Positions 27,169 through 45,509 of a stretch of 64,000 nucleotides of DNA are shown here, piece after piece. Location of the stretch: positions 3,694 through 67,693 of the IMG/VR virus record IMGVR_UViG_3300025736_000023; one strand, 5' to 3'. The notes beneath the pieces were generated by a model. That model saw nothing but the letters and a program-made list of their open reading frames with translations. It had not been told where the DNA came from and did no database searches. The stretch is from a virus. Made by a program: the position numbers and the translations under genes. Numbering within the stretch: position 1 is the first letter of the stretch; each line of letters opens with the position of its first letter.

Positions 27169-27866
27169 CTCGCTATAGCTATCCCAGATCCGCCATACTT
27201 GCCCTCAACACCTCGATGCAAGCGTTGAGTTGTTGCCAAAAGATTACCAGGTATAAAATGAGCTGTCAATTTTTGAAGCCCCTCAGCATAGTCAGCCTCT
27301 AAAGCGGACTCATTCATACGGGCTTGCAAGTATACCGCTGTCGTCAGATCTGCAATGATATCAAGGTCCTCATCAGGGAGAGTATCATACCCATCTTCAG
27401 CAGTGTTCAAAACATGAAGCGCTGCGTAGACGATCTCTAGATCATCATCTCCAGCAGATGCGGGAGTTGGGAAAATTATCAACGTTTTATTACGCTGTAC
27501 CCAAGTCCCTTTCGTAGCCCGTATATGGGCACTTTGATTGATGTTGTCAATAACTCTATCCGAAGGCATGTGATATCTGGAAGTGCGATTCAGCAAGTAC
27601 ATTTGCTCGGCACCAGCGCGCATTTCGGCGAACAACTGTCCCGAGGCCCACCAATCGCACTCTAGCACCCACAGACAGTTGAGAGCTGACAGATCATATT
27701 CCTCTTCATCTGCAATGGTGGATATCTTAGTAGATGCTACTACAGGATTATACCTAGAATACTCTCGAACTGCATTTGCAATCATTCGATCCAGGCATTC
27801 GGTAGCAATCGTTTCAGTTGTGATGCGATCAGTAGTTACAGCGGTACGGATTACCGTTATCAGCAC
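27165..27866 (-). CDS. Head-tail adaptor/neck protein
   Basis: I..AV.EYS.Y.P, EY.L and L.IFPTP motifs. Confidence 0.6.
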   Translation of the reverse strand: MLITVIRTAVTTDRITTETIATECLDRMIANAVREYSRYNPVVASTKISTIADEEEYDLSALNCLWVLECDWWASGQLFAEMRAGAEQMYLLNRTSRYHMPSDRVIDNINQSAHIRATKGTWVQRNKTLIIFPTPASAGDDDLEIVYAALHVLNTAEDGYDTLPDEDLDIIADLTTAVYLQARMNESALEADYAEGLQKLTAHFIPGNLLATTQRLHRGVEGKYGGSGIAIAR

Positions 27867-28432
27867 CTAGTACCCCCTGCGTTAAAAGTAGCATAGAAAG
27901 CGTTCTGTCGCTCTTGTCTTACAATGGTTTTGTAGTGAAGCAATAAGCAATCATCTGGTGCCCTAATAAATGTTTCATACGGCGCTATAGGCCGTTCATG
28001 AAGCGCGCCAGCGAATCTGTAACCGCTACGAAATATCCTTGGGTGCCATTCGTAGGTATTTTTCCCGATTGGCTGTTTCCCTACGAGATTGTGTCTCCGA
28101 ATCCAAACGCCCCCTGTGCCCTGGAGTGGCTGCCAGTATGCTATCCATGAAAGCAACCTAACCGTAGGCAACTCGTCTGCATCAATCTGCAGTACCCATG
28201 GAGTAGTCACAAAGGCTAATCCTACATTTCTAGCTTCTCCGAACCCTCGCTCCATTGTAGTATGACACACACGAGCACCCAAATTCAAGGCTTCTTCTAC
28301 TGTGCCATCTACTGACCCGGTATCTGTAACGATAATCTCATGAACATGGGGGGCTACTCTTGATAGTAATCCATAGATAAATCCTTCTTCATTCTTTGTA
28401 AGAACGTGTAAGCTGAGTTTACTTGGCAGCAT
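27860..28432 (-). CDS. GT2 glycosyltransferase
   Basis: KNEE, IIVTDTGSVDGT, ARN, IDADE and LHE motifs; start taken at MLPSK. Confidence 0.88.
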   Translation of the reverse strand: MLPSKLSLHVLTKNEEGFIYGLLSRVAPHVHEIIVTDTGSVDGTVEEALNLGARVCHTTMERGFGEARNVGLAFVTTPWVLQIDADELPTVRLLSWIAYWQPLQGTGGVWIRRHNLVGKQPIGKNTYEWHPRIFRSGYRFAGALHERPIAPYETFIRAPDDCLLLHYKTIVRQERQNAFYATFNAGGTRC

Positions 28433-28439
28433 AATTATC

Positions 28440-30308
28440 CTACTTTTTTTTGTGCCAAACACCTTGAAGGGTACGTCCACGTTTACGTTGCACCAAACCC
28501 CTAGCCTCTACCGTTTTGTACACTCTACCATGCAGGAAACTACGATTAGTCCCATACTCCTCTAAAATACAAGACTCGGAAGAAAGAATGTCCATCCAGT
28601 TACCATGTCTTAGAAGTCTTGCGCGTTTAGCATAATACTTAGGATAGTACACTGATGGTACCGAAAAAAGCACTTGAGGGACTATACCCAACTGGTTTCG
28701 TATTTGTAGAGCTATTTCTTTATTGCCTAACTGTTGTAGTACCCCCATACTGGCGCAGACTGCAGGCATTGTCACGCCAGATCGATGGAGCACAGGGGGG
28801 TCTAACAAACCTTTGGTGCAAGATATTAACTTTGGAGCGTTCACACCTCTGGCTGCAAGTTTCTCACGCGCAGTCTCCAAGTTTTCCGGTGCAACAATCC
28901 CTACAACCTCATAACCCCGCTGTATAAGACCCTTGTATAGAATTCCTTCTCCTACACCCATATCCCAAACAGGCCCAGGTGCGGGTATTAGCTTTGTAAA
29001 CCAATCAAAGAAACCAGTATGATCTGCAACTGTCTCATTAGGGGCGTTAGGTATGCGGCTGTTCCGAACGCTAGAGTCTGCAGGGCTAACACCCTCTATT
29101 ATGTCAAGCAGTTTTCTCCCTACACTAGCAGGGCCATGTTCTCTTGCGAACCATTGAGCAGCCCGTTGCCCCTTCTGGTACGCTTCCTCTCTATGATTAT
29201 ACACCCAGCGCATCGTTTCAATTAGTTCATCCCAATCTGGGAGATACCAGTTCCCTCCTAGTGGCGAGTCCTCTGTTTTACCTGTTTGAATTGGAAAGGT
29301 GTACTGTGGATCACACATCGGGATGAGTCCGGTATTGTTTGATAGAATTGTGGGTAGCCCAGTAGCTATAGCTTCCCGAGGGGGCATTCCAAAACCCTCC
29401 CCTTTGGATGCAAACACCATAGCATCCGCGTTGTGCATCCAATCTAACATCTTTTGAGGAAACCAATCGGCGCTGATAATGCTGACTCTTGGATCGTTAC
29501 CTGTGCCTGGAAGCTGGTTTTCCCCCCAACCGAAATACCCCAAACGGGTCTTGAATTCAAATCTAACATTAGGATATTGCTTCAGTGGAAACGCTTTTTT
29601 GAAGGCATCCAGAGTTTCCAAAGGGGATTTTCGCCCTGATAATGTTCCAAAAGTGATAAAAGTGAACGTGTCTTTAGGTTCTCTCTTCGTTGCTGTATGA
29701 TACATTGGATTGATTGACAGCGGCGACACCACTACTGGAGCAGTCACAAACTGTTCAAATACATCTTTACAATAACTACAAGGAACTACTAGCAAATCAA
29801 CCTCTCCACAGTCATGCTTCCATTCAGGTAAGTTTACTAGCGGGTCGTCTGACTCGTACATGGTCAACCCTATTCTATAGGGAGTAGGTAGCTTCTTGAA
29901 TTCTCCTGGAGTTGCCATACAAATGCCGACTCTGTGTGCTCGCTGTTCTGGCTTCCGCAGCATTGCTATAGTCTCAGGCAAAAGTCCCTCTTTGGACATG
30001 AACCAACATTGATTCACAGATATTTGACAACCCACGCTCGTTAGTGCATGTATCATGTTCTCAGCAGCAGTTGCGTAACCGTCTCCCATACTGAATGGGC
30101 TCAACCAGTAAACATGAGTTCCTTCAGGAGTCTTCCAAAGCAGATCCTTAGAATCTTCAAGATCATCCAGATCGGCCTTTCGTCGTGTGTTCATCCAAAT
30201 AGCGTCTAGGTAGCTGACTTCTTCCGGGACCTTCAACCAAACGCCCGGAAGAAGCCAACTTCCATGAGGAGCTACTTGTGTAACCCCTGTGCTGTTACGT
30301 ACTCGCAT
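28440..30308 (-). CDS. GT4 (GT-B) glycosyltransferase with a C-terminal methyltransferase-like domain
   Basis: DGYA, TMYES and SKGEGFGMPPREAIATGLP; C-terminal VWDMGVGEG. Confidence 0.85.
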   Translation of the reverse strand: MRVRNSTGVTQVAPHGSWLLPGVWLKVPEEVSYLDAIWMNTRRKADLDDLEDSKDLLWKTPEGTHVYWLSPFSMGDGYATAAENMIHALTSVGCQISVNQCWFMSKEGLLPETIAMLRKPEQRAHRVGICMATPGEFKKLPTPYRIGLTMYESDDPLVNLPEWKHDCGEVDLLVVPCSYCKDVFEQFVTAPVVVSPLSINPMYHTATKREPKDTFTFITFGTLSGRKSPLETLDAFKKAFPLKQYPNVRFEFKTRLGYFGWGENQLPGTGNDPRVSIISADWFPQKMLDWMHNADAMVFASKGEGFGMPPREAIATGLPTILSNNTGLIPMCDPQYTFPIQTGKTEDSPLGGNWYLPDWDELIETMRWVYNHREEAYQKGQRAAQWFAREHGPASVGRKLLDIIEGVSPADSSVRNSRIPNAPNETVADHTGFFDWFTKLIPAPGPVWDMGVGEGILYKGLIQRGYEVVGIVAPENLETAREKLAARGVNAPKLISCTKGLLDPPVLHRSGVTMPAVCASMGVLQQLGNKEIALQIRNQLGIVPQVLFSVPSVYYPKYYAKRARLLRHGNWMDILSSESCILEEYGTNRSFLHGRVYKTVEARGLVQRKRGRTLQGVWHKKK

Positions 30309-30329
30309 CTCTAAGTCCCCCCGATACGA

Positions 30330-31547
30330 CTACTCTGCGACGGTAATAGTTGAGTACAGTTCCGAGACCACCATTTTCTTGGCGTTTCGAGTTCGCACGT
30401 TTCGCGTCCATTTATCAACGTTCACATACGCGCCCGGCAGAGTTGCATCAGAAGGTCCCAAGGTCTCTGCATAGACTAGCGGCATAGGCGAAAGCGGGAT
30501 ATATGGTGCAAAAACGTAGCCAGTATCGATAGTGCTTCGGGGATAGCACCCCATAATCCCTCTGGTTGCTGGGATATATGGAGTCATGTACACGTCCCAG
30601 AAGCCCTCCACACGACCTACAAATTCCACTCCGGATATTGAACGAGGCCCCGGCGGTGTCATTCGTTCTGCGGGTTTCCAAGTTGCTGACTTCATCAGAT
30701 AGGTGATGACAGTGCGCCCGCCAATAACCCAGTCCGAGTTACGATATCGCTGGGTATAGATCAGGCTCTCGGCGTCGATAAGCGCGTGATGAAGCGTCTC
30801 GTACCACTCCCGGTTAGATTGTCCAGTAGGTACAGTCCAGCTCCAATCTACGTTACCGGCTCCTGCACCATTTAGAATCTCTCGAAGGCTACGGTACTCA
30901 AGCTCTCTGAGGATCTCTTCGGCGCACTGATTTACCAACTCGGATTCGACGTCGATATTCAGCGCCCCACGAGCGTCCTCTTGAACCTCAGTAGACCAAC
31001 TAGCGTTCAGGATATCCTTGGTGGCAGTAACAGTCTCTTTGGTGATCTCCATCTTAATGCGGTTAGGTACCTCGTTCTCACCCTTGAACGCATAATCGCT
31101 GTCCATCACCGTAGTGCTGGTCTCGGGATCAACATCCTCGCGCTTGAAATCCATGTAAAAGATTTGCATCACGCCACCAGATGACAAAGGCATCGGCTGG
31201 ATTGAGGCGATCTTTGCCAGGATCAACTGCGGGAACACCTTGCGCACAATCGGCAAAGCGTACTTCACAGGCAGAGCGACATCAGTTGTCATCGTCTGCT
31301 CCATGACGTTGCTGCCAGCACTAATTATACTCTGGTTCTCAAACAGAATCGCCATGGTCTCCCACATCTTCTGCGGGATTGCCTCCATGGGATTTCTCTT
31401 AGTTCCTGTGCCCAAGAGCCACTCCCATTTGCCCACTAGGGCATCTAGATAGGCTCTACGGCCAGCCAGGAAATCCTTATAAGACGCACCTACATCCACA
31501 ACCGACATATCTGGAACATTTCCTCTATTCACTGTAGCCTCCTTCAT
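30330..31547 (-). CDS. Major capsid protein, T4 gp23-like
   Basis: LPIVRKVFPQL...SIQPM, W..E..ED......D.E.EL.....EI..E and GYVFAPYIPL. Confidence 0.88.
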   Translation of the reverse strand: MKEATVNRGNVPDMSVVDVGASYKDFLAGRRAYLDALVGKWEWLLGTGTKRNPMEAIPQKMWETMAILFENQSIISAGSNVMEQTMTTDVALPVKYALPIVRKVFPQLILAKIASIQPMPLSSGGVMQIFYMDFKREDVDPETSTTVMDSDYAFKGENEVPNRIKMEITKETVTATKDILNASWSTEVQEDARGALNIDVESELVNQCAEEILRELEYRSLREILNGAGAGNVDWSWTVPTGQSNREWYETLHHALIDAESLIYTQRYRNSDWVIGGRTVITYLMKSATWKPAERMTPPGPRSISGVEFVGRVEGFWDVYMTPYIPATRGIMGCYPRSTIDTGYVFAPYIPLSPMPLVYAETLGPSDATLPGAYVNVDKWTRNVRTRNAKKMVVSELYSTITVAE

Positions 31548-31564
31548 GTACCTGTATAAATAGA

Positions 31565-32950
31565 TTACCCAGCCAAGCGCATGAGCGCGATTTGACCCTC
31601 AGTGAATGTGACCGGATCCTCGCTCTCGTCAGTATTGCTATCGTCCTCTTCTCCGTCAGCCTTAAACTTGGCTATCCCTTTCGCAGTGCCTACACCAGGT
31701 GATCTAGACAAAGCGCGCATTAGAGCTACTTCTCGTACTGCCTTCAGTGTTGCAGGAATTTCCTCTACCGAGGTTACACTTTCCTTCAAAGCGGCAGCAA
31801 TTTCGCGGCCAACACCAATCTGTGCCGCCTGTTCAATTGCCAAGGACAGCTCCAGTGCGGCTACTTGTGCAATAGTGTCCTCAGTAGGCTCCTGGGTCTC
31901 CAACAAAGTATCTCTCTCTGTGGTAACTGTCTCAAGAGCCGCCGTTGCTGTATCGAGAGATTCCTGAAGGGTTTCACTGTGACCGGTCGCAACCTCTAAA
32001 GCCGTTGCAACATGATCATCCAGCAAGTCCTTCCGCTTTTCGATAAGCATCTCCAGAGTTAGTTCCTCCCAATTGATCTCCATGACCTTCTCCTCCTCTT
32101 TTTCAGTGGGTTTCCACACTGGAAACACCATCGCTGATTCAAGCACTTTAACTAGACCTGCTCCGGTTATGCCCGCCTGATCGCACATGTCAATTCCTTG
32201 GATCTTAGCGGTTTGCATCTCCTCTATGTAACCATAATCCTCTCCTTCTCCGTCTCCACCATCTTCAGAACTAAGACTGTGCATAATACTATGCACCTCT
32301 GACATACGTACAGAGGACTCCCCCATTACTTCATCGTAAAGCAGGGTAATTACATCTTTTCCTTCAGATGTAGGTGAAATATACCCATGATACCGGATCT
32401 CGGGGCCATCTCGCCATAATTCTCCTTTGATTTTTCCGATAGGATTCTTTGTGTCCGAGGTGAAGATGGACCCTCCAGCGCTACCATGCTTATTGTACAT
32501 CGTTACAGTGTGACCAAGCTCCATGAACTTGTTGGTGTTCTCCATGCAAAGCTCATTGAATTCTGGAGCGTAATACCGTTCATAGCCAGTCCCTAACTGG
32601 CTAACAACAAAGTCAATCAGGGCTATTCCCTCAAAATTGAATCCTTCCCTAAGAGCCTTATCGAGGGATTGCTCTTCGAGCCATGTTACTGGCTTACTTA
32701 TTCTGGCCTCATATGTGGGGAAAGCTGCCATAGCCTCATGTGATTTACTCCATTTGCCATCTTTTGCTTTGCGATAGCCTGCTTGGTACAACGATTTGCC
32801 CATTACTCCGTGGGCTTGTCTATAAGCGGCGCCTTCGTCCTGTGTCTTCTTTAGAACGCTATTGAAGACTTCAATGAATTGATTTAGGAATTCTTGGGGT
32901 ATTCCTTTACCGGCCAACTTCCGAGGAACTGTATTCTTCTTGAATGGCAT
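31565..32950 (-). CDS. ChaB-like N-terminal domain + prohead protease/scaffold
   Basis: F...FNS......DE..A...A...Y.K..DG.W at the N-terminus; acidic coiled-coil C-terminus; between portal and capsid. Confidence 0.65.
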   Translation of the reverse strand: MPFKKNTVPRKLAGKGIPQEFLNQFIEVFNSVLKKTQDEGAAYRQAHGVMGKSLYQAGYRKAKDGKWSKSHEAMAAFPTYEARISKPVTWLEEQSLDKALREGFNFEGIALIDFVVSQLGTGYERYYAPEFNELCMENTNKFMELGHTVTMYNKHGSAGGSIFTSDTKNPIGKIKGELWRDGPEIRYHGYISPTSEGKDVITLLYDEVMGESSVRMSEVHSIMHSLSSEDGGDGEGEDYGYIEEMQTAKIQGIDMCDQAGITGAGLVKVLESAMVFPVWKPTEKEEEKVMEINWEELTLEMLIEKRKDLLDDHVATALEVATGHSETLQESLDTATAALETVTTERDTLLETQEPTEDTIAQVAALELSLAIEQAAQIGVGREIAAALKESVTSVEEIPATLKAVREVALMRALSRSPGVGTAKGIAKFKADGEEDDSNTDESEDPVTFTEGQIALMRLAG

Positions 32951-34359
32951 TATTCATCTCCTTCTGGTTCAACAGTTGGTTTTGGTTTCGGAGCTGCCGC
33001 AATTCTGTCTATCTCTATCTTGGACATTCTTAAATGTCTTGTCTGAATAAATTCAGAGTCTACCAGACCTAATGCCAGAAGTTTTTCATCTGCTTCGGCA
33101 AAGTTCTTAGTTGCAGCACTCCCTTCCAACACATCTGCCCAAGAGGGAGTAGGCCACATAATGATAAGCTCAACGCTGTTTGGATCTATCCCTAGTAAAA
33201 CTAATTGGAGCTTGATAGTGTGCTCAATAGCCTCACTCAGCATAGACTGAATTCTTCGCAGTATTCGCAAAAAGCGCCTGTCCTGCTGTTGCAGAGTAGC
33301 CTTCGCATTGATGTCACGTTCCAAACCTAAGTGTGCTTTGGGTACTCTTAGAGATGTCATTACTTTGTTCTGGTAATACTCAATTGGCGAGAGATTCAAA
33401 AAGCCTGAATTGGCCGTATCAAGTATCTTAACATCTGTCTGGCCTGGATACGCCCGACCGCCAATATCGTGCATTGCCCGACCAATGTAAATGTCCTTCA
33501 CAACAGAGAGCTCGTCCTTACCTTTTACTCCCGAGGCAATTGCTCTAGTAGTAAGAGATGTAGCGAAGGTATTGATATATGCTTCGGCCTCTTTCGGAGT
33601 TTTACCAGTAACATCTAAAATAAAGAGCAATCTAGCAAAGGCTCTAGTCAGCCAGTTGATGACTAGAGCTTCTTCCATTGCCTGCCACTTTTTCCAAGCT
33701 GTACGTGCTGTAGAGAGCAATGAGCGACCATACACTCTAGAGCCAGAACGGTTCCAACGTATGTGCTCTATCTGATAAGGGTACCACCAGGCAACTCTCT
33801 GATTGGTGCCGGGGCGGTACTGTTCAAAAGCGGCCTCTCCAGGCTTTGTACCCTCAAGCAATAGCCCAGCATCGTTTTCATTTCGGAACATCGACACAGG
33901 GGGCATGTACATTAAGCGAACTAACAGTAGATTCTTATCGATAATGTACTGCAAAAACGTATCACCATACAGTATCGTGTCCCTGGCTATTGCATACGCT
34001 TTTTCTCTCCATCTAGTGCGTTTGATAACCTCTTCTACGACTGTACTATGCTCCTTTCCCTCTTGAAATACAATCGTGAAAGCGCCCTTAGAGCCGTCTT
34101 CTGAGTTTACAGAGTTATCTGCCAGAATATCTAGTGCCGAAGCAACTTCATCTACGGTATCATCCATCTCCAAAGCGTCAGAATAGACGGCCATACGCTT
34201 TGAATCTATCTCAAAGAAGACACCTTTGAGCTTGCCTACTGTAGCCTGAGTAACACCTACAGTGGACGTAGCATTAGGTTTAGGAGTCTCTGGACGGGCT
34301 TTTTTTCGTACTTTAGCCCATACTTTTCTTAGCCAACTAGGTTGTTTCTGGTCAAGCAT
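32950..34359 (-). CDS. Portal protein, T4 gp20-like
   Basis: MEEALVI..LTRA..R..F.LDV and SLRVPK motifs. Confidence 0.85.
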   Translation of the reverse strand: MLDQKQPSWLRKVWAKVRKKARPETPKPNATSTVGVTQATVGKLKGVFFEIDSKRMAVYSDALEMDDTVDEVASALDILADNSVNSEDGSKGAFTIVFQEGKEHSTVVEEVIKRTRWREKAYAIARDTILYGDTFLQYIIDKNLLLVRLMYMPPVSMFRNENDAGLLLEGTKPGEAAFEQYRPGTNQRVAWWYPYQIEHIRWNRSGSRVYGRSLLSTARTAWKKWQAMEEALVINWLTRAFARLLFILDVTGKTPKEAEAYINTFATSLTTRAIASGVKGKDELSVVKDIYIGRAMHDIGGRAYPGQTDVKILDTANSGFLNLSPIEYYQNKVMTSLRVPKAHLGLERDINAKATLQQQDRRFLRILRRIQSMLSEAIEHTIKLQLVLLGIDPNSVELIIMWPTPSWADVLEGSAATKNFAEADEKLLALGLVDSEFIQTRHLRMSKIEIDRIAAAPKPKPTVEPEGDE

Positions 34360-34377: not shown

Positions 34378-34641
34378 TTACAGTCTTAGCGGCACATTCG
34401 TTGGCAACTCTGGACACACGGTACCAAACCAGTTGAACGCATCTTCAGACTCAACCACGCGCCACGTCAGCACGTCTTCCCGAATGAGCGCTGCAACCTC
34501 CTGTAGCTTCTGGCCGTCCGTTTTGTCCATCGCCTCAACAACCCTCATTGCCGCCGCGTCGATCTCGACAGTGCGGTGAGCACTCCCGACCGGTATATAG
34601 GTGGCTTCGCCATCGACAATGACCGGGTGTCCTACCTCCAC
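34378..34641 (-). CDS. Hypothetical protein, locally GC-richer
   Basis: Overlaps the upstream stop. Confidence 0.45.
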   Translation of the reverse strand: MEVGHPVIVDGEATYIPVGSAHRTVEIDAAAMRVVEAMDKTDGQKLQEVAALIREDVLTWRVVESEDAFNWFGTVCPELPTNVPLRL

Positions 34642-35207
34642 ATCAAACTTGACGCTGCCCGAATATTTACTGTGCCAGTATTGGTCACTAGCGCCTGTAC
34701 TGTCACACCCACCAATAGCGGCGTGTTAGCTGCCAGTGCCTCAGCCGTAGCTAGTGCCGCGCACGTTTTCTGTCCACACAGCAGTGTAACAGGTGCGTCT
34801 GTAGATACCGGCACTGCCGCTACTCTTAATTCGGTATCAGTTAACCCACCTGTGGTTACAGGGAACGTCGCTTGATCACTAGCAATAACAACAGGCTGAG
34901 ATGCGGCCATGATCTTCTGGCCCAAGGTAGCAATTCTAGCAGCAAATAGAGTCACCAAGCCGCGTAGTTTACCACTAATGGTTCCATCAGCGTCAGTTAC
35001 AATAGCAGCATCTGTAACGGTACCCTGCACAGCAGCGATAGCTGCAACATCTGTACCAGAGCCTCCTATTGCATTCTCTATAGCTCTCAGTCTAGATAGA
35101 ACTGTATACGTAGTAGGAACTGCTACAACTTCTCCTAACACATCATTATCATTGTTATCAATTAGCTGTACTAAACCTGATGGTTCTCTTTCCGGTATGA
35201 CTGCCAT
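34632..35207 (-). CDS. Virion structural/fibre-like protein, possibly C-terminally truncated
   Basis: LGQK.MA.S.PVVIASDQ and V.A...NTG.V motifs; AGGAGG RBS. Confidence 0.55.
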   Translation of the reverse strand: MAVIPEREPSGLVQLIDNNDNDVLGEVVAVPTTYTVLSRLRAIENAIGGSGTDVAAIAAVQGTVTDAAIVTDADGTISGKLRGLVTLFAARIATLGQKIMAASQPVVIASDQATFPVTTGGLTDTELRVAAVPVSTDAPVTLLCGQKTCAALATAEALAANTPLLVGVTVQALVTNTGTVNIRAASSLMWR

Positions 35208-37262: not shown

Positions 37263-37748
37263 CTATCGGCGTCTCGGGGTAAGCGACTTGCCTGTCTTAG
37301 CTACAAGGGTAGCCATTGGTTTCAGGCGCTTATTGATCCCTCTAACGCGACTAGCAGGATCTAGAGCATCCCTATCCTCCTGTGATATAGCAATACCCGC
37401 TCCTTGCTTGGCTACAATAGCCTGAAGCCGTGCTGGATCGAGCACTACCTCTTCAGATTCGTCGTTGTCGATACGCCATTGCTCCATAAGAGCGTCCGCC
37501 TCAACAGCAGTAACCTCTTCCATGTCAGGGCTTGCAAGGTAGCGATCGGCCACCCCATCGTCCAATAGGATCAAGCAAAATTCATGATCCTGACCCATTC
37601 CAATGCCACCAGAATACGCCCCTGTACCGTTGATCCCACAGGGGCCTAGCCCTGAGCGATCTACCTCCTGCGCATTGTAAGGAGAGGGATAGACCATCAT
37701 ATCCTCTCCCACGCCACCACGCCGAATCTTAACTTTTACTATTCTCAT
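37263..37748 (-). CDS. Hypothetical protein
   Basis: RBS present, in operon. Confidence 0.6.
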   Translation of the reverse strand: MRIVKVKIRRGGVGEDMMVYPSPYNAQEVDRSGLGPCGINGTGAYSGGIGMGQDHEFCLILLDDGVADRYLASPDMEEVTAVEADALMEQWRIDNDESEEVVLDPARLQAIVAKQGAGIAISQEDRDALDPASRVRGINKRLKPMATLVAKTGKSLTPRRR

Positions 37749-37845: not shown

Positions 37846-38415
37846 ATGTCTAAAAAGACTGTCCCTGTCAGTAAAATTTGTCCTGTCTGTAAGAAAGAGT
37901 TTTTTGTATGCCCACCCGGACGATCTAGTAGATATTATGCACCTAACAAACAAGTTTGCTGTTCTCGTACTTGTGCTTTTAAAGGGCGCTTCCGTCGTAG
38001 CCAGCAGTGTAAGCTACTTTTACCTACTGAAGCTTCATATATCGCAGGCTTCCTAGACGGTGACGGTTCTATTATGCTCTATAAGAGAGAACGTAAAGCC
38101 GCATTAAGAGTGTCTTTTGCTAACTGCAAACGTGAGATCCTTGATTGGATACTGCTTAAAACTGGTGTAGGTAACGTAATTGAGAAACCTATTCATGATG
38201 CAAAACATAAACCAGCTTTCCTACTCTTTATAAACTCTGGTGCTGCATTATCTTTACTCGTACAGCTACTACAATATCTCACTATCAAGCGGCCTCAAGC
38301 AGAACTCGCTATTTGGTTCCAAGAGCGCAAAAGTGATCCAGCTATTAGCTCTAAGACAGATTGGCAACGGAAGGCTAAAGCTAAAATGCAAAGCCTAAAT
38401 CGGCGGGGCAGATAA
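37846..38415 (+). mobile_element. Free-standing LAGLIDADG homing endonuclease with N-terminal Zn-finger
   Basis: YIAGFLDGDGSI; CPVC..F...CCS..C; L.IKR.QA; antisense to the operon. Confidence 0.88.
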
Positions 38416-38430: not shown

Positions 38431-39018
38431 CTAACCACCAGCAGTAACAGTAAGCCGATAGGTGTACTCGATCGAATCACCGTTCTCCACGTTTATTGCA
38501 CTGAATACATGTCTATCTAGCAATGTTACACCGGTTGACGCATTAAACAGACCGTGTTCAGTAATTGCCTTTGTAGTAGTGTAAGCAATAGTACCTACGC
38601 TTTCATAGATGTTATGTGCATTCTCTACCTGTGTACCAGCCGATCGAGCTTCGCCATCTGTAGTCTCAATGTCCGTGTCTCCAACAACAGCCGGTGTAGT
38701 ACCAACCCCTGAATCGTGATACTTGAAATCGCCCCAGATAGATGACTCAGCAATAAGCTGATCCACCATAAGATCCACAAACGCTGTAGTAACGACTCGA
38801 AGGCTGACTAGTCCAAAATCGATAATCTCTCCATTAGCCTTTCGTACTTGAATGGATAGTCGCCCAATAAAGCCTGAGAGATTCAATACCCTAAAGAGCA
38901 GTACCCGCCAACCTTTGAGCAAGTTAGGCAGGTTACGTATCTTCCAATCTAGCCCAGCTTTGGGAGCTCTAATAGTTCTAGTGCGTATTGCCCCACTAAA
39001 TCCAACGTGGCTTTCCAT
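38431..39018 (-). CDS. Fibre-anchor/collar-like structural protein
   Basis: SGVGTTP...D and AITEHGLFNAS.G..L.DR.VFSAINV..GDSI. Confidence 0.6.
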   Translation of the reverse strand: MESHVGFSGAIRTRTIRAPKAGLDWKIRNLPNLLKGWRVLLFRVLNLSGFIGRLSIQVRKANGEIIDFGLVSLRVVTTAFVDLMVDQLIAESSIWGDFKYHDSGVGTTPAVVGDTDIETTDGEARSAGTQVENAHNIYESVGTIAYTTTKAITEHGLFNASTGVTLLDRHVFSAINVENGDSIEYTYRLTVTAGG

Positions 39019-39029
39019 ATTACTATCTC

Positions 39030-39155
39030 CTATTTCTTTCCAATGGGGACACCGCGAGGACCGTTGCCCTTACCGCGTCCTAGTCCCTGACCCTTGCCAC
39101 CACTCCTGATCTTGCCTCCTGGACAGGATGGATACGTTGTTTTCTTCTTAGCCAT
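39030..39155 (-). CDS. 41-aa Gly/Lys/Arg-rich basic peptide (missed by the track)
   Basis: MAKKKTTYPSCPGGKIRSGGKGQGLGRGKGNGPRGVPIGKK; AAAGGAG upstream; fills the gap exactly. Confidence 0.6.
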   Translation of the reverse strand: MAKKKTTYPSCPGGKIRSGGKGQGLGRGKGNGPRGVPIGKK

Positions 39156-40326
39156 TATCAGCGACTCCTTTACTGATTTCTAACGAGTATTTTACACAAT
39201 GCCGAATCACTTCACAAACCCTAGCAACGTCAGCTTGATTCATAGCCATTCCAGTAGGCAGAACAATAGTTCTACTAGCCACCTCCTCTGTCCTTGGGAG
39301 CTCCCAATGTCGCTGGCTGTAAGGTCTTGCTTCGTGACAGGGAGGTGAAAAGTACCGCCGGGCTAAAATGTTCTCTGCCCAAAGCGCTTTTGCAAGCGTA
39401 TCAGCAGATAATCCCTCTTTCAATACTTCTATGACAACATATTGATAATTGCTATTCCCTCCTAAAGGATACACCCTAATGCCAGATATGTCAAGTCCTT
39501 CAGAGTAAATAGTAAAGTTAGCATAGTTATGATCAATAAATGTAGGCACACCAGTAAGGTTCATCACGCCTACAGCGGCGTGTAATTCGCTTAGTTTAGC
39601 GTTAATGCCTAGTCCGTATACAGAATGATCCCCAGGTTTATCGCCAGCGAAACCGAAATTGCGTAATTCTCTAAGTTTCAGAGTTAAACTGGGACTATTT
39701 GTGGTTATTGCACCGCCCTCAATGCTGTTGAAGAACTTTGTTGCATGGAATGAAAAGACCTCACAAGCTCCATAATTTCCTATTCTATCCCAGCTAGGTC
39801 CACAGAGAAAAGCATGTGCAGCATCAAAGAACAGAGGCAATCCGTGTCTCCCTGCGATCTCAGTTAGTTCCTTGGGGGCACAGGGGGTACCCCACACATG
39901 TACTCCTAATATCCCGACAGTACGATCGGTAATTTTCTTCTCTACATCGATGGGATCAAGCACGTGTGTTTTTGGGTCAATGTCCGCAAAGATTGGCGTG
40001 TACCCTTGCCAGGCCAGTGCGTGTGGAGTAGCTATAAAAGTGAAAGATGGCATGATCACCTCGCCGAGCTTTGGCATTAACGCTCTAGCAGCAATCATCA
40101 AACCCAAGGTACCGTTAGCTACAGCCACACTCCAAGGTACCGACAGTTTATTACACAATTGAGCCTCGAACTGCTGTACCTGCACTCCATTGTTGGTAAG
40201 CCACTGACTCTCTAGCACGCTCTTAAAAACTCTTAATAGCATATCGTGGTGTACCATGTTAGGGCGGCCCACATGCTTGGGCTTTTCAAACGCTGGTTCG
40301 CCACCAAAGATAGCTAGTTTTTTCAT
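39148..40326 (-). CDS. vioA: DegT/DnrJ PLP sugar aminotransferase, VioA/DesI-like
   Basis: LAIFGG.PAF...HVGRPN, NGT, FDAAH, SFHATK and EGGA. Confidence 0.85.
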   Translation of the reverse strand: MKKLAIFGGEPAFEKPKHVGRPNMVHHDMLLRVFKSVLESQWLTNNGVQVQQFEAQLCNKLSVPWSVAVANGTLGLMIAARALMPKLGEVIMPSFTFIATPHALAWQGYTPIFADIDPKTHVLDPIDVEKKITDRTVGILGVHVWGTPCAPKELTEIAGRHGLPLFFDAAHAFLCGPSWDRIGNYGACEVFSFHATKFFNSIEGGAITTNSPSLTLKLRELRNFGFAGDKPGDHSVYGLGINAKLSELHAAVGVMNLTGVPTFIDHNYANFTIYSEGLDISGIRVYPLGGNSNYQYVVIEVLKEGLSADTLAKALWAENILARRYFSPPCHEARPYSQRHWELPRTEEVASRTIVLPTGMAMNQADVARVCEVIRHCVKYSLEISKGVADNG

Positions 40327-40329
40327 GTC

Positions 40330-40920
40330 TTATCCTGTATCCGCCTCTAATGTTGGGGGCATAGATGTTTCTAGCATTCGCCTTCGGTATATCTCTTGTT
40401 CAAGCAGCTTCTCTAGTTCTAAGACACGCTCTTTAGGACGTTCTCTTATATATCTAACAGGACTCCCAGCGTAAATAGACCACGGCAGCAAAGTAGTGTT
40501 TTGTAACACTAGGGACATAGCACCTACAACGACGCCATCAGGTATAAACACGCCAGGTAGAATGACTGAGTTAGCACCAACCATGCAGTGCCGACCAATC
40601 TCTACCCGAGAGCGGATTGCTACCCTAAAAGGAGCTGGAATAGCTGCGCCTAACAAACTTGCTCCTGAAATGTCCTCTGTCCCTGTGAAAATGCGTACTC
40701 CACTGGACAGAGTAGAATAGTCGCCTATGGAGCACTCTCCACCACCTGTTATGGATGCAAACGACGCAATATGCACATAATTGCCCAGGAGGGTCCATCG
40801 CTTGCTAACAATGAACACAAAGTCATCTATGATGATATTATGCCCCCAAACGATGTTTTCAGGGTATGCTAGTTTTGCTAAAGGGAATATCTTATTGTCT
40901 AGCATGAAGAAGCACTCCAA
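40330..40920 (-). CDS. Hexapeptide-repeat (LbH) sugar N-acetyltransferase, VioB-like
   Basis: IDDF.FI, GNYVHIA..SITGGG, GANSVILPGV and YAGSP. Confidence 0.8.
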   Translation of the reverse strand: MECFFMLDNKIFPLAKLAYPENIVWGHNIIIDDFVFIVSKRWTLLGNYVHIASFASITGGGECSIGDYSTLSSGVRIFTGTEDISGASLLGAAIPAPFRVAIRSRVEIGRHCMVGANSVILPGVFIPDGVVVGAMSLVLQNTTLLPWSIYAGSPVRYIRERPKERVLELEKLLEQEIYRRRMLETSMPPTLEADTG

Positions 40921-41953
40921 ATCTAGTAACCCACTGCTGCGCTAATACTGTATAATCATGAACTTGCTCTTCAGCTTGTGCCTGCAATTGTATTTTGTAC
41001 AATTCAGGATTTAGCAGGAGATCACTAGCTGCATTTGCAAAAGCTAGTTGCCATTCTCCCTTACGCGGGACAACAGTACCGGTGCGCCCTTGAATTACTC
41101 TCTCTGGCAAAGCGCTTAGATCAGTAACAACTAGCGCGTTTCTTGCTGCAGCACACTCCATAGCCGCCATACAACACATCTCAGGAGATGCAGGACTACC
41201 TGGGAGTAACATCACCTGGCTCTGTAACTGCTCTTCAATAAGCTGATTTCTGGGAACATATCCCAAATAGGTGATCCCTTCAACTCCAGTTATACCAACA
41301 TCTGTAGCCCCAACCCAGAAGGGATCCCCAAGGTGTATCCCCCATAACTCCATACCGCCTGTAACGTGTAATGTAGCCCAAGGTACTCTCTTACGGATCA
41401 AGGGCCAAATTGTAACTAGAGAGCGTAAACCACGCTCAGGCACACTACAGTAAACACACCTACCACGTACTTTAGATAAACTGCGCCTACTGTAGCCTAA
41501 ATAATGAATACCTGCATTGCTCAACAAGTACAGACTCTCATCTATAGGGTGCTGCTGTTGAAAACGTGCCTTCTGATGCTCACTGATCACAATAACTAAT
41601 TGGACATCTCCTGCACTGACATAGGCAGGTAAGTTAGGGATGGCTGGGTCGCAACAAAAGATAGCTTTGACAGGGGCGACCATACCCTTAAGAGCATTAG
41701 GAAAACGCAAAGCAATAACTACGTCAAATTCCTCGTTGAATCGTTCGGGACCCTCGATAGTTCGCCATTCCACACCCCTATGCTCATGTGCATGAGTCCC
41801 AGGGATATAGATACGTACATTGTGCCCTAACTTTGCCAAAGCAAAAGCATACTGCACCATCGCACCCTCGGAGCCCCCGTCGTCACCCATATCGTAAGAT
41901 CTGCCTGAGAAGTGTGCAGGTCGGCCTGTCTTGTATACAAAAGCTATGCGCAT
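40892..41953 (-). CDS. GT4-like (GT-B) glycosyltransferase
   Basis: GGSE, S.PERGL and E..C..AME.AA...V....AL.E. Confidence 0.85.
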   Translation of the reverse strand: MRIAFVYKTGRPAHFSGRSYDMGDDGGSEGAMVQYAFALAKLGHNVRIYIPGTHAHEHRGVEWRTIEGPERFNEEFDVVIALRFPNALKGMVAPVKAIFCCDPAIPNLPAYVSAGDVQLVIVISEHQKARFQQQHPIDESLYLLSNAGIHYLGYSRRSLSKVRGRCVYCSVPERGLRSLVTIWPLIRKRVPWATLHVTGGMELWGIHLGDPFWVGATDVGITGVEGITYLGYVPRNQLIEEQLQSQVMLLPGSPASPEMCCMAAMECAAARNALVVTDLSALPERVIQGRTGTVVPRKGEWQLAFANAASDLLLNPELYKIQLQAQAEEQVHDYTVLAQQWVTRFGVLLHARQ

Positions 41954-42963
41954 TGGTCCTTCTTTCTCAAAAGTACAGACGCCACTTGGACGTTCACTCC
42001 CTTAGCGAATACTGGGGGCGCTTGAGCCTTAATAGGCCAATCATTCCAATCATTTCTAGCAAAGTCTGCTGGCTGACAAAGAGTGGCAATATCTCTAAAG
42101 GGGGTAACTAGACGAGCATAAACCGAGCTCTCATCATAAATACGTCGTCCAGTAGTTTTACCGGGATACTCTTCATACCCTTTACCAAAATCAAAGGTGA
42201 TTGCCAATAACCCATTAGGTTTCAACACTCTTAGCATCTCTGAAACAGCTTTGCCATCCTCTGGAATATGCTTAATGCAAGCCGTGCAAATAACGTCGTC
42301 AAAACTGTTGTTTTCAAATGGAAGATTAGTTGCATCCGCCGCTTGAACGTGTATTCCTGGTCCCGGCTTGATCTGTACTGTACTGATATCTATGGCAGTA
42401 ACGGAAGCTCCCATACTCGATAGATAGGTAGGGAGTATACTTTCCCTGGTACCAACATCTAATATCTTGTGATTTTGTACAACCCCCAAGAAGATTGTGG
42501 CTCTGATATGCTCCCATTGGCGCATTAGGGGCATTTTATTGTCCCCAAAACCCTTAAGCGTAGCTGATTCTTTAGCGAAGCAAAACTCTCGAAAGTCCTG
42601 CTCTAAGTAGCCCCCCGAGACACAATCAAGATCGATCCAAGGTCTAAGAGTTGACATCCAATTCACCTTATTTATATGGCACTCATCCGCCGCGCCTCCG
42701 AGATGAAAATCAGCAAACTGTACCCAAACTCGCCTCTTGCCTTCTCTCCACCAGTTGGCAAGACGGTGCCAACCATCTAACACTACCAGGCAATGCTTAC
42801 AGATGATGATAGGAGACGCTTCTAATTCTCCACTATGATACTTTCTCACGCCAGACCAATCAGTGCATGGATGGCACCTGAAGTTGATCCACTCGATAGG
42901 CCACAACCTGGCCTCAGTGACCTCTATTTCAGCACCGTCGTACATTGCTCTAGGCATGATCAT
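41944..42963 (-). CDS. ParB/Srx-like domain fused to a class I SAM methyltransferase
   Basis: PIII....VLDGWHRL; ILDVGT and ADATNLPF.NNSFD; start taken at MIMPRA. Confidence 0.75.
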   Translation of the reverse strand: MIMPRAMYDGAEIEVTEARLWPIEWINFRCHPCTDWSGVRKYHSGELEASPIIICKHCLVVLDGWHRLANWWREGKRRVWVQFADFHLGGAADECHINKVNWMSTLRPWIDLDCVSGGYLEQDFREFCFAKESATLKGFGDNKMPLMRQWEHIRATIFLGVVQNHKILDVGTRESILPTYLSSMGASVTAIDISTVQIKPGPGIHVQAADATNLPFENNSFDDVICTACIKHIPEDGKAVSEMLRVLKPNGLLAITFDFGKGYEEYPGKTTGRRIYDESSVYARLVTPFRDIATLCQPADFARNDWNDWPIKAQAPPVFAKGVNVQVASVLLRKKDQCA

Positions 42964-43705
42964 ACTGGCGATATTGTTTTGGTATTGGAGCTCCATGCTT
43001 TCGGAATATGTAGGGCATCGATTTTTTGTGGCTGTCCAAAAATGCTTTATTTCTCTTGTGCCATTGATGGTACCCTGTAATGTCGTCACATGTTAGCAGG
43101 TGATACCCAGCATCCGTTAGACACCAGCCAAAATCGCAATCGTTAGCATTTGCCCCTGGAATGAGCTCATCCCAACCGCCCACGTCATGCCAAGCCTGTA
43201 GAGGAATAATCACATTAGCACCTAAAATAGCTCTACAGGACGGCAAGAGTTTGTAGTCAAACCAGTTCTTTCCATGTACTCCTAGTCGGTGATCTGCCCT
43301 AGCTTTAGAGCGGTCTCCTGACTTTGGTATCCAATCGTACCGGCCTGCTAATACCCGCTTACGATACTTGGCGATGTGCCTATAGGCGTTCTCAATAGCG
43401 TCGGGAGAGAATAGAATGTCCCCATCTGTGTACCAAATGTGGGTGGTTGCTCCAGGTACTGCTTTAGTACCTATATTCAATGTGGCTGCTACCCCAAGTG
43501 GGAGAATACCTCCAGTGAACACATGCCTTACATGAAAGGCACGACTGTTCGCAATAGATAGTGCCCTAATTGGGTCTGTACTAGCATCATCTGCAACGAC
43601 TAGAGTGAAGTCTCTCCTAGTTTGTAGCGACCATGCTTTGATCGATTCTTGGACGTGGTCTATTCGGTTGTGAACTGCCATAACTACACTAATATGTTTA
43701 ACCAT
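42950..43705 (-). CDS. GT2 glycosyltransferase
   Basis: SVVM..HNR, VVADDASTD, TDGD and GGWDE; AGGAGG RBS before 43705. Confidence 0.85.
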   Translation of the reverse strand: MVKHISVVMAVHNRIDHVQESIKAWSLQTRRDFTLVVADDASTDPIRALSIANSRAFHVRHVFTGGILPLGVAATLNIGTKAVPGATTHIWYTDGDILFSPDAIENAYRHIAKYRKRVLAGRYDWIPKSGDRSKARADHRLGVHGKNWFDYKLLPSCRAILGANVIIPLQAWHDVGGWDELIPGANANDCDFGWCLTDAGYHLLTCDDITGYHQWHKRNKAFLDSHKKSMPYIFRKHGAPIPKQYRQYDHA

Positions 43706-45509
43706 CTGACTTTGGGCCTCCTTTGAAACTAGGGGTGATATAGATATCATCGCCTTCGCCCCATATTTGTAATCCAACTGACGCCAAATCGTGTTTTGCA
43801 GCGATATAATGGACATTTTCTACAAGCGTCTGACGATTGGCCACCTGATTTCTATCATGATACACATGATAGCCATGTACCAACCTGGTGAAGATGACAG
43901 GATATCCTGCAAGTTGGGCTCGAATGCTTAACTCACAATCTTGTCCTCCATGAGTGACCATATTTTCATCAAAGCCTCCTAATTCAGTATAGATATTCCT
44001 TGGAAATAGCAACACATCAGCGAAAAGTGCAGCAGCATACTGCGTTTGTGGGGCACCCTCAAACAGTTCTGGAGAATCTAGCACTCTAGGGTCGGTCCCA
44101 ATAAGCCCTTTGGTACGCCCCCCAAATTGAGCCGGGGGCAACGTGCCCTCTACGATCTTGTCCCAATTGGTGTAGATATCATAGGGCCGGATGTGCATTG
44201 GGAGCATCCAATCATACTGTCCTGCAATTATAGCCTGCGGATTAGCCAGCCGCAAGTTATTAAGGTGCTCTAGTGACGTAGGCTCTAATAGGATATCTGA
44301 CCCCAAGAGCAAGAACGCATCTCCACGAGCGATCGCACAACCTCGATTGTATGCTAACGATGCTCGATAACCTTTATGAGGTTGCCAACGATACTGTATT
44401 GCAAAGCGGTCTTGAAACTCTAATAGCACACCAAGAGGGCTATCTACTGAACCATCGTCCGTTACAACTACTTCAATTGGTGCATGATAGTGTTCTAGAT
44501 TCCGATCGAGAGCACACAGAGCAAGATATAGATTGTCGCGCCTGTTGTACACAGGCAAAACCACTGAAAGAGAGAAGTTACTGGGCTTAACTGCACGTAC
44601 AGGCTCCAATGCAGCGGACTGCACAGGAACCTGCACAGGGGGGATAATCTCTACCGGTTCGTGCGTAGCTATTGCAGGTACTGATACAGGCGTTCCATCG
44701 GACATTGTTGGAGACAGATTGAACAGATGCTCATCGCTGCTGTAACCTACAAATTGACTTCTCAGACGCTCACGGTTTTTTAGGGAATACTTCTCAACCC
44801 ACTCAACGCCCGATCCGTGCTCATAGTGATATAGTGTAGCTTTGGGCTGGTAAATTACTTTATACCCAGCTTCTCTAACCCGCCAACAAAAGTCGATGTC
44901 CTCGAAGTTGCCCCCTGTGTAGCCCTCGTCGAGACCTCCGAAGTCATTCCATATGGAGCGCCGAATTAGCGCGCAAGCGAAGGTGATAGCGTTAAGTTCT
45001 CTACGTTTAGCTGCATTAACCGAATCGGCTGGTTGGTTTCGGAATGGGTGATAGGGCATACCGTCTACCGTTCGCGCAACCCCAGCGTGCTGTACCGTTA
45101 AGCGAATGCCAGGCTCCTTCGTATCAGGATAGAGCAAGCGAGCTCCTACAATACCTACGTTAGGATCATTGTCTAGTTCTTCAGCCATAGCCTGTAGCCA
45201 ACCTGGTAGCGGTTCAATATCTGAGTTTAGTAGACAGACGTACTCTGATGGCGGTATCTGAGCTACTGCCCAGTTGTTTATCTCAGCATACCCTTTTCTT
45301 GTGCGCATTTTGAAGACAGTGGCCAACCCTTTCTCAACAAGTTCATCCAAATAGTCCTGCAGCTCAGTCTGCGGAGAGCAATCATCGGCTATGTAGATGG
45401 TGTGCGGGCGCATAGTACGCTCGACTAAGGCTGGAATACATCGTTTTATGTGATGTACTCCATTGAACGTAGGAATAACAATAGGTATCACGATCCCCCC
45501 TCTAGGCAA
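43698..45509 (-). CDS. Double GT2 glycosyltransferase
   Basis: Two GT-A domains (IADDCS..LLNSD..FEDIDFC; VTDDGS.D..GGFDE..GGQD). Confidence 0.9.
   Translation of the reverse strand: MPRGGIVIPIVIPTFNGVHHIKRCIPALVERTMRPHTIYIADDCSPQTELQDYLDELVEKGLATVFKMRTRKGYAEINNWAVAQIPPSEYVCLLNSDIEPLPGWLQAMAEELDNDPNVGIVGARLLYPDTKEPGIRLTVQHAGVARTVDGMPYHPFRNQPADSVNAAKRRELNAITFACALIRRSIWNDFGGLDEGYTGGNFEDIDFCWRVREAGYKVIYQPKATLYHYEHGSGVEWVEKYSLKNRERLRSQFVGYSSDEHLFNLSPTMSDGTPVSVPAIATHEPVEIIPPVQVPVQSAALEPVRAVKPSNFSLSVVLPVYNRRDNLYLALCALDRNLEHYHAPIEVVVTDDGSVDSPLGVLLEFQDRFAIQYRWQPHKGYRASLAYNRGCAIARGDAFLLLGSDILLEPTSLEHLNNLRLANPQAIIAGQYDWMLPMHIRPYDIYTNWDKIVEGTLPPAQFGGRTKGLIGTDPRVLDSPELFEGAPQTQYAAALFADVLLFPRNIYTELGGFDENMVTHGGQDCELSIRAQLAGYPVIFTRLVHGYHVYHDRNQVANRQTLVENVHYIAAKHDLASVGLQIWGEGDDIYITPSFKGGPKSDG

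Follow-up and report, generated by a model that had tools for sequence, protein, structure and literature searches.

A glycosyltransferase fixed beside the capsid gene and a swappable sugar island in an uncultured tailed phage: a candidate system for virion glycosylation

The IMG/VR virus record IMGVR_UViG_3300025736_000023 (67,693 bp, CheckV grade complete) belongs to a long-tailed phage whose head module is interwoven with sugar genes, and it is these genes, and what they may decorate, that we consider here. The stretch of DNA analysed, hereafter the window, is 64 kb long and corresponds to bases 3694-67693 of the record; coordinates are those of the window unless a relative is named. From the large terminase gene (terL) to the tail genes, its minus strand carries six glycosyltransferase (GT) genes with seven GT domains, a 4-aminotransferase of apparent DesI type, an LbH N-acyltransferase and two methyltransferase domains. 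The original prediction, drawn from the letters of the window and its open reading frames (ORFs), had read these genes as a kit for glycosylating the virion, and every gene that it named is found in the ORF list on the minus strand, where it had been placed. Pfam matches are counted here when they lie above the curated cut-offs, which are passed by five of the six GT genes, the aminotransferase (DegT), the LbH enzyme (Hexapep) and one methyltransferase, and for these genes the matches bear out the original domain calls. Identities and motif retention refer to G001, a complete relative of 65,186 bp with direct terminal repeats. The features of the region, followed by two framework genes lying outside it, are these (aa, amino acids; SAM, S-adenosylmethionine):

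45502..47331, minus strand: large terminase terL, 609 aa, upstream border of the sugar island; phrog_38, 3.3e-90; 77% identity in G001
43698..45509, minus strand: two-domain GT2, 603 aa; Glycos_transf_2 in two stretches, 3.4e-33, and Glyco_transf_7C on the second domain, 9.5e-08; 69% in G001
42950..43816, minus strand: GT2, 288 aa as listed; Glycos_transf_2, 9.2e-13; motifs ADD and DGD retained in G001; 73% identity
41944..43089, minus strand: methyltransferase protein, 381 aa, class I SAM; Methyltransf_11, 7.7e-18, residues 210-297; 64% in G001
40892..41953, minus strand: GT4, 353 aa; Pfam Glyco_trans_1_4, 4.7e-10; EX7E motif EMCCMAAME at residue 258, identical in G001; 59% identity
40330..40920, minus strand: LbH N-acyltransferase, 196 aa; Pfam Hexapep, 2.2e-09; 79% in G001
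39148..40326, minus strand: DesI-type nucleotide-sugar 4-aminotransferase, 392 aa; DegT, 2e-87; 67% in G001
38431..39018, minus strand: fibre-like structural protein, 195 aa; phrog_5417, a family of unknown function, 2.4e-06; 76% in G001
37846..38415, plus strand: LAGLIDADG-type homing endonuclease ORF, outside the kit; LAGLIDADG_3, 0.001, below cut-off; motif visible in the translation
37263..37748, minus strand: conserved 161-aa protein, function unknown; no family match; 84% in G001
36677..37258, minus strand: small GT-A-like protein, 193 aa; phrog_2456 glycosyltransferase, 6.7e-05 (weak); 86% in G001
35562..36674, minus strand: repeat protein, 370 aa; N-terminal five-bladed beta-propeller, then short GxxTFxGxL repeats; 27% Ser+Thr
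34632..35207, minus strand: 191-aa protein directly upstream of the portal gene; no family match; only the first 43 residues conserved (tblastn against G001 and L015)
32950..34359, minus strand: T4-type portal, downstream border of the island; Pfam Portal_T4, 1.5e-28; 79% in G001
31565..32950, minus strand: 461-aa protein between portal and capsid; no family match; syntenic in all clade loci reaching that far
30330..31547, minus strand: gp23-type major capsid protein, 405 aa; Pfam Gp23, 4.2e-31; 86% in G001
28440..30308, minus strand: GT4-methyltransferase fusion (GT4-MT), 622 aa, directly after the capsid gene; Glycos_transf_1, 8.8e-09; GT4-conflict, 1.9e-07; 73% in G001
27860..28480, minus strand: short GT2, 206 aa, after GT4-MT; Glycos_transf_2, 8.5e-14; motif DAD retained in G001; 67% identity
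27165..27866, minus strand: first conserved gene after the capsid-side GTs, 233 aa; no family match; syntenic across the clade
18754-24060, minus strand: tape-measure protein, 1768 aa; PhageMin_Tail, 4.7e-25
4160-6547, plus strand: family A DNA polymerase, 795 aa; the same chain includes a 3'-5' exonuclease domain and, at its N-terminus, a domain of the uracil-DNA-glycosylase superfamily

All of the window's sugar genes recur colinearly in G001, at 59-86% amino-acid identity, and this recurrence indicates that the set is more than a chance assemblage. Their catalytic motifs, whose degeneracy the original prediction had named as a finding that would speak against it, are intact: the DxD-type motifs of the GT-A and GT2 proteins, the EX7E motifs of both GT4s and the pyridoxal phosphate lysine motif are all present and are retained in G001 with at most one conservative change, the two-domain GT2 keeping ADD/NSD and TDD/GSD. 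The weakest of the GT calls is the GT-A-like protein at 36677..37258, which fell somewhat short of what had been claimed for it: a weak PHROG match, an ESM Atlas value of 0.98 to phage clusters named glycosyltransferase, Anp1 or GT2, and a DSD motif identical in G001 speak for the assignment, whereas neither Pfam nor NCBIfam gave a match. The sugar genes all run in the same direction and neighbouring genes abut or overlap, in agreement with the tight coupling described at first. The listed ORFs of the two-domain GT2, the adjoining GT2 and the methyltransferase overlap by 118-140 nt (42950-43089 and 43698-43816), with the same overlaps in G001; internal starts would remove them, and the true start of the GT2 probably lies further in. 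Promoter-like and terminator-like sites in 27000-46900 number 29 and 16, against 29.9 and 13.9 expected from shuffles.

The position of GT4-MT is a constant feature of this arrangement. A profile made from 20 relatives of the capsid protein (228 were found at E<=1e-10 in a large protein collection) recovered 80 IMG/VR loci, 49 of them with a capsid identity of at least 40% and 46 of those distinct by capsid DNA, in which synteny was read by tblastn with the window proteins. In 40 of these 46 distinct loci the capsid gene is immediately followed by a GT4-MT homologue, an arrangement that persists as capsid identity falls from 86% to 41%. Of the six exceptions, five stop no more than 172 bp past the capsid gene, which leaves 40 of 41 among loci with enough sequence; in the sixth, L042, the capsid gene is followed by 650 bp with a LAGLIDADG-type ORF (~5910-6450) and then by the start of an ORF that resembles the N-terminus of GT4-MT by eye. 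The same order of capsid and GT4-MT is found on a separate contig of 8.9 kb from a metagenome-assembled genome (MAG), L090, and the short GT2 comes after GT4-MT in 24 of the 32 distinct loci with room for it. Because the adjacency to the capsid gene holds in 40 of 41 distinct loci, we regard GT4-MT as a core head-module gene of the clade. Co-occurrence of the kit with gp23-like capsids across IMG/VR had been put forward as a check, and the link to the head module that emerges is stronger than was foreseen. The LAGLIDADG-type ORF of L042 differs from that of the window (37846-38415), which has no counterpart in G001 and is therefore taken to be an insertion. At another locus, L045, capsid and GT4-MT are fused in frame (5274-8129; P0157, 968 aa), the product lacking about the last 45 capsid residues, invariant positions among them, and the first few dozen residues of GT4-MT (query 1-43, BLASTP); the genome may be defective or the fusion an artefact of assembly, and this locus is not used as evidence.

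The same constancy bears on a rather improbable alternative, in which the enzymes would glycosylate some other cytoplasmic target, be it a host protein, a non-structural phage protein or a small molecule, as a takeover or counter-defence function riding the late operon. Phage accessory genes often sit in structural operons, and the core enzyme passes the cut-off of the Pfam family 'GT4 in conflict systems' at 30.9 against 26 bits. Accessory genes, however, are usually patchy, whereas GT4-MT remains beside the capsid gene throughout that range of capsid divergence, and amino-sugar tailoring together with five to seven transferase domains would be a heavy kit for a single target.

What the 622-aa enzyme is can be stated in part from its sequence and in part from its predicted structure. 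Across 34 distinct full-length orthologues the GT4 half keeps invariant GDGY, TMYE, RK, KTR, GEG..RE and GG.W motifs, and the methyltransferase half is loosely conserved; the EX7E motif reads EGFGMPPRE at residue 304, and its Arg-Glu end is invariant in all 34. Searched by sequence against solved structures, the enzyme had no match at E<=0.01. An AlphaFold2 model (predicted local distance difference test, pLDDT, 91.3; predicted template modelling score, pTM, 0.90) found its best fold match in a putative GT of chlorovirus NY-2A (3oy2, 2.0e-14), all matches listed being GT-B and mostly GT4. As modelled, the core enzyme is a GT4 of GT-B fold with two Rossmann-like halves and the EX7E motif. Its C-terminal third had been counted as one of two methyltransferase domains; the other, Methyltransf_11 at 41944-43089, held, but no Pfam family matched the one in the 622-aa protein, so that this half of the claim is weaker than proposed. 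A GxGxG motif and the alternating strands and helices that follow the GT-B part in the AlphaFold2 model lead us to read the C-terminal part as a Rossmann-type domain, and precomputed Methyltransf_25, Methyltransf_11 or Methyltransf_23 domains appear in 7 of the 120 orthologues listed. The family is nearly confined to the clade, with 110 matches at 1.6e-58 or better and the next at 2.4e-38 and worse. In cultured phages, similarity (~25% identity) is confined to proteins annotated as glycosyltransferases in actinophages; they come from 141 records, of which Streptomyces phages make up 127. A predicted complex of the GT4 domain with the capsid protein scored 0.40, against 0.00 for the best of three controls, with a contact agreement of at least 86% between runs and a partner pLDDT of at least 68. 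Of 80 solved complexes, 58 reach the mark used for such predictions, as do 2 of 110 mismatched pairs; at values of 0.60 or below it is reached by only seven of those 80 and by both of the mismatches that passed. This modelled complex lends weak support to the capsid protein as acceptor.

The second site of sugar genes lies between terL and the portal gene, and in contrast to the first it is highly variable. Both border genes are visible in nine distinct loci, where the gap between them measures 132-234 bp in six and 4.4-5.8 kb in three, compared with ~11 kb in the window and ~10 kb in G001. We chose 20 ORFs from the islands of five loci (out of 83 ORFs listed for nine loci), taking some of those that tblastn had left unnamed, and 19 of the 20 proved to be sugar enzymes: ten GT2, two Glyco_trans_1_2, two methyltransferases, two NAD-dependent epimerase/dehydratases, one ATP-grasp, one DegT and one RGP/GT75 protein. 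Content differs even between close relatives. Loci L017 and L025 share 87% capsid identity and show translated similarity over only 4084 of 6917 island bases; for L017 and L020, at 75% capsid identity, the figure is only 1832 of 6917. These sequence comparisons show, at the terL-portal junction, a sugar island whose content can be swapped and which turns over faster than capsid or portal. Two of the island proteins are unusual for a phage, namely the RGP/GT75-type protein (8.7e-40; L020 1747-2718) and a PylC-like ATP-grasp protein (6.5e-16; L017 3844-4836).

The placement originally described, between terL and portal and again between capsid and neck, therefore stands for terL, portal and capsid, which are assigned by family, and the word 'neck' is a matter of position. 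Fibre-like genes had been said to lie among the sugar genes, and two do lie within the island. The 195-aa protein shows an ESM Atlas value of 0.98 to a 'tail fiber protein family' cluster, with structural TM-scores of 0.77/0.94 to that cluster and 0.63/0.78 to the N-terminal domain of a tail-collar fibre. The 370-aa protein was modelled by AlphaFold2 with a pLDDT of 88-98 over its first 200 residues, in which 20 strands form the propeller, the best superposition being 3mbr (root-mean-square deviation 2.5 A over 190 columns). Its repeats recur at the N-terminus of a 1243-aa tail protein (14164-17895, minus strand).

The island suggests an amino sugar as a product. Compared with solved enzymes, the aminotransferase matched PDB 2po3 (DesI) at 2.3e-99 and the next entry at 2.8e-37, its best NCBIfam model was TIGR04427 PLP_DesI (dTDP-4-dehydro-6-deoxyglucose aminotransferase; dTDP, deoxythymidine diphosphate) at 9.3e-119, and its SFHATK lysine motif aligns and is retained in G001. 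It is, by sequence, a member of the DesI-type family, a membership that does not by itself prove the exact substrate or stereochemistry. A preprint lists 2PO3 among C4 aminotransferases, with TDP-4-keto-6-deoxyglucose as the substrate and an equatorial amine as the outcome; the product of such a step is viosamine. The amino sugar, with viosamine as its model, had been a guess in the original prediction, and these two best matches support it. Homologues of the aminotransferase (52-60% identity) lie just upstream of the portal gene in L017, L021, L023, L025, L042 and L057, which indicates that an amino sugar is a recurring theme of the clade. The LbH enzyme has 3vbi as its best solved relative (1.3e-26), followed by the next family at 8.7e-10, VioB at 6.8e-06 and QdtC at 1.8e-05. 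We take 3vbi to be AntD, the N-acyltransferase of the anthrose pathway, although the deposit's own name, 'galactoside O-acetyltransferase', does not confirm this.

Rare sugar synthesis by the phage itself, which had also been proposed, applies in part. The aminotransferase and the LbH enzyme are present, but a search of the whole record for RmlA- and RmlB-type enzymes gave no NTP_transferase or GDP_Man_Dehyd match (both controls were positive in 14 of 14 genomes), and the 4-keto sugar must consequently come from the host. An epimerase/dehydratase gene is present in the relatives L017 and L020. The kit holds two class I SAM methyltransferase domains, for which a sugar substrate is presumed. Judging from the genes, the island may turn dTDP-4-keto-6-deoxyglucose of the host into a viosamine that is N-acylated and probably O-methylated.

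Sugar enzymes of these families invite an explanation other than decoration of the particle, namely that they remodel a glycan of the host envelope (O-antigen, capsule, S-layer or flagellin) by acting on lipid-linked or nascent intermediates with the help of host flippases and ligases, the purpose being, for example, to mask receptors against loss of progeny on debris or to block superinfection. We consider this, taken together with its purpose, unlikely. Families GT2 and GT4 are at home in polysaccharide pathways, as are the NCBIfam models that the window's GTs match best, the fold matches of GT4-MT include PimA, PglA, WaaG and TarM, and variable sugar islands would also suit an arms race over surface glycans; the cyanophage literature interprets the GT sets of those phages in this manner (PMC12801897). 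Against it stands the gene content of the phage. A hydropathy scan, a simple one rather than a transmembrane predictor, found no transmembrane segment in any GT (highest 19-residue hydropathy below 1.6) and, once the tape-measure gene (three hydrophobic segments) and its antisense frames are set aside, at most two such segments in any ORF; this agrees with the earlier statement that the GTs lack transmembrane segments and that no flippase or Gtr gene is present. No flippase is thus encoded, and a Bac_transf priming enzyme was not found, which together indicate that a complete lipid-carrier export route is not encoded by the phage; polymerase and ligase are likewise missing. Seroconverting prophages of the Gtr/O-antigen type, by comparison, carry a GtrA-type flippase and membrane GTs and are temperate. 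The present genome yielded no tyrosine integrase (serine recombinases were not searched for), and the capsid profile, run against 185,579 species with one genome each, gave a single match, the contig L090; the missing integrase and the near-absence of the clade from those genomes make lysogenic seroconversion unlikely. Envelope remodelling would, moreover, leave unexplained why, in 40 of 41 loci, a GT should keep its place between the capsid gene and the conserved gene that follows.

A further alternative, which we hold to be very improbable, is that the enzymes hypermodify the phage DNA with sugars, in the manner of the T4 glucosyltransferases or of GTs linked to 5mYOX or ThyS. Phage GT-A and GT-B enzymes can indeed build multi-sugar glycans on 5-hydroxymethylcytosine, serially and with sugar tailoring as would be the case here; according to the same preprint (10.1101/2023.12.21.572611), the known GTs of this kind adjoin C5-methyltransferase/5mYOX or ThyS genes. 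No such neighbours are present in the window, and the genome gave no match to a Thymidylat_synt-type hydroxymethylase or a C5 DNA_methylase, for both of which the controls were positive; a Tet_JBP search gave no match either, but its control was silent too and it therefore shows nothing. The replication genes, a family A polymerase fused to uracil-DNA glycosylase and an SNF2 helicase, lie on the plus strand at 4160-9312, away from the GTs of the head module, and no sugar gene accompanies them, as had been noted at the outset.

We lean towards reading the kit as a phage-encoded, cytoplasmic system for glycosylating virion proteins, with a conserved core and variable outer sugars. The genes point to the particle because a GT is fixed beside the capsid gene, because the second site lies between packaging and head genes, and because fibre-like genes lie within the island. 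From gene position, conservation and the exclusion of rivals we infer that the glycan sits on virion proteins, and the acceptor, the identity of the sugar past the 4-amino step, the order of transfer and a late timing are inferred likewise. Under this scheme a soluble GT4-MT, encoded after the capsid gene in every clade member, would lay a conserved core on a virion protein, and in most members the short GT2 would join it in doing so. That protein would most likely be the major capsid protein, the prime candidate as acceptor for the core enzyme, with fibre-like proteins as possible further acceptors. The swappable terL-portal island would then add outer sugars that differ between related phages. 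In the present phage, host dTDP-4-keto-6-deoxy-D-glucose would be aminated at C4 by the DesI-type enzyme, the amine would be N-acylated by the LbH enzyme, and O-methylation is probable; one GT4, three GT2 domains and the small GT-A-like protein would transfer the amino sugar and the other sugars. Tentatively, the proposal may be extended to the large, so far uncultured gp23-capsid clade as a whole, in which glycosylation might be part of head assembly, with GT4-MT as the enzyme that primes the capsid or some other core virion protein and the swappable island as a phage 'serotype' locus comparable to O-antigen loci. Each lineage would then bear an outer glycan of its own, made with rare sugars such as N-acyl-O-methyl-viosamine.

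Several considerations weigh against a virion glycan. Most GT2 and GT4 enzymes use acceptors that are lipid-linked or are polysaccharides, and the NCBIfam models that the window's GTs match best are named for exopolysaccharide, mycofactocin and lipopolysaccharide transferases, all with scores far under the cut-offs. The fold of GT4-MT indicates a retaining GT-B enzyme and is silent on the acceptor, because PimA, PglA, MshA, GtfA and SdgB, GT4s that act variously on lipids, small molecules and proteins, score almost alike as matches. A lack of transmembrane segments does not exclude a lipid-linked acceptor of the host, since peripheral GTs of such pathways lack them as well. The clade counts describe related metagenomic fragments and not independent events, and the aminotransferase reaches 397 bits with TIGR04427, below the equivalog cut-off of 650 bits. 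In the nearest proven phage case, the virion glycosylation of mycobacteriophages (Che8, Corndog and Myrna) reportedly described by Freeman et al. in Cell Host Microbe in 2023, the genes lie elsewhere: the three GT genes of Che8 (108-110) are at the right end of the genome and none is in the head module (genes 1-11). Lastly, mycobacteriophage glycans are placed on capsid and tail tube subunits, at the C-termini, in one account (PMC12619734), and the C-terminus of the present capsid protein is not notably rich in Ser or Thr by eye.

Set beside known systems, the arrangement shares elements with several of them. As with the mycobacteriophages, the GTs are phage-encoded and soluble, and methyltransferases occur in some mycobacteriophage relatives; unlike them, the clade described here, known from its genes alone, has a GT4-MT fixed by the capsid gene throughout, a variable island with nucleotide-sugar tailoring, and a gp23-type capsid. 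The fibril cluster of Mimivirus, as given in PMC10117803, comprises the methyltransferase R132, the aminotransferase L136, the dehydratase R141, the N-acetyltransferase-GT L142 and the GT2s L137-L140. Both systems hold the enzyme classes for 2-O-methyl-N-acyl-viosamine (in Mimivirus 2-O-methyl-N-acetyl-viosamine), several GT2s and a clade-specific content, and a fibril protein lies in the Mimivirus cluster as fibre-like ones do here. Mimivirus differs in using UDP-sugars and a 4,6-dehydratase of its own, whereas the phage has no dehydratase and an aminotransferase nearest to the dTDP-sugar enzyme DesI, and the kit resides in a 68-kb tailed phage, not in a giant virus. Chloroviruses (PBCV-1 A064R and others) decorate their major capsid protein with cytoplasmic virus-encoded GTs, one of which is fused to a methyltransferase domain. 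The NY-2A protein is the best fold match of GT4-MT, yet capsid fold and host domain differ, and as that match is barely better than many to bacterial GT4s it demonstrates fold and not kinship. Cellular counterparts also exist: Pseudomonas syringae carries a Vio-island and has viosamine in its flagellin, according to PMC10117803, and anthrose caps exosporium glycoproteins (BclA) of Bacillus. These protein O-glycans, capped by N-acyl, O-methyl viosamine and products of cellular systems, share with the phage the pairing of a DesI-type 4-aminotransferase with an LbH N-acyltransferase.

To our knowledge, the only phages for which virion glycosylation has been demonstrated are a small number of actinophages, in which it makes recognition by antibodies less effective. 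Neither a capsid-adjacent GT nor a terL-portal sugar island was found reported for phages in open-access full text, supplements excluded. New here, as read from the sequences, are a clade-wide GT4-MT adjacent to the capsid gene, a sugar island between terL and portal, and a turnover of that island faster than that of capsid or portal. Should the favoured interpretation of virion glycosylation be correct, the trait would be no oddity of actinophages but would belong, in conserved form, to the head morphogenesis of an environmental lineage, and phages would carry variable glycan loci of the kind seen on bacterial surfaces and in giant viruses. The capsid-tracking GT4-MT would then form with its neighbour a simple, testable pair of enzyme and substrate, and a GT fixed by the capsid gene together with a terL-portal sugar island would serve as a metagenomic marker for glycosylated phages.

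The framework of the genome is itself distant from cultured phages: the capsid protein has at most 28% identity to any capsid among 50,697 cultured phage records, and the whole 19.5-kb region gave no match to those records by megablast. PHROGs matched a single family, of unknown function, among ten tail, neck and lysis-side proteins; as the genes after the capsid-side GTs have no informative family match, the labels 'neck', 'adaptor' and 'tube' rest on position, and it is from position that the 233-aa protein (27165..27866) is presumed to be a head-tail connector and the 461-aa protein (31565..32950) a protease or scaffold. No tRNA genes were found. The contig L090 (8,933 bp) consists entirely of phage sequence, in the order capsid, GT4-MT, short GT2 and tail genes, and is binned in a Pirellulales MAG, at most a weak hint at a planctomycete host and too weak to name one.

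Some minor observations concern individual proteins. The methyltransferase at 41944..43089 begins with a ~200-aa N-terminal domain without a family match, in which a DGWHR motif, noted by eye, presumably recalls ParB/sulfiredoxin-type domains, although Pfam gave no such match; a methyltransferase of L017 (204 aa) lacks a counterpart of this domain. The 195-aa fibre-like protein was considered as a paralogue of a 155-aa tail protein, an idea dropped for want of BLASTP similarity. The ~41-45-aa propeller repeat (GITWDGTNVISAD...KHYxHxGFSxSI) shared by 35562-36674 and 14164-17895 belongs to no Pfam family, yet of 1.84 billion representative proteins it matches 2832 at E<=0.001 and 1174 at E<=1e-10, and lengths of 1000-2100 aa are common among them. 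At the N-terminus of 14164-17895 the repeat is also tandem at the DNA level, with a period of 123. Its sequence distribution suggests a binding module of phage fibres that is widespread but undescribed. The tape-measure gene (18754-24060) contains a 63-bp tandem repeat near its 3' end (3.5 copies, 92% matches) and a long Glu/Arg/Ala-rich stretch, and its antisense frames yield spurious ORFs with multiple transmembrane segments. A small protein on the plus strand (60385-60822) carries a Lar restriction-alleviation domain at 6.6e-08, above the cut-off, and by this match is likely an anti-restriction gene.

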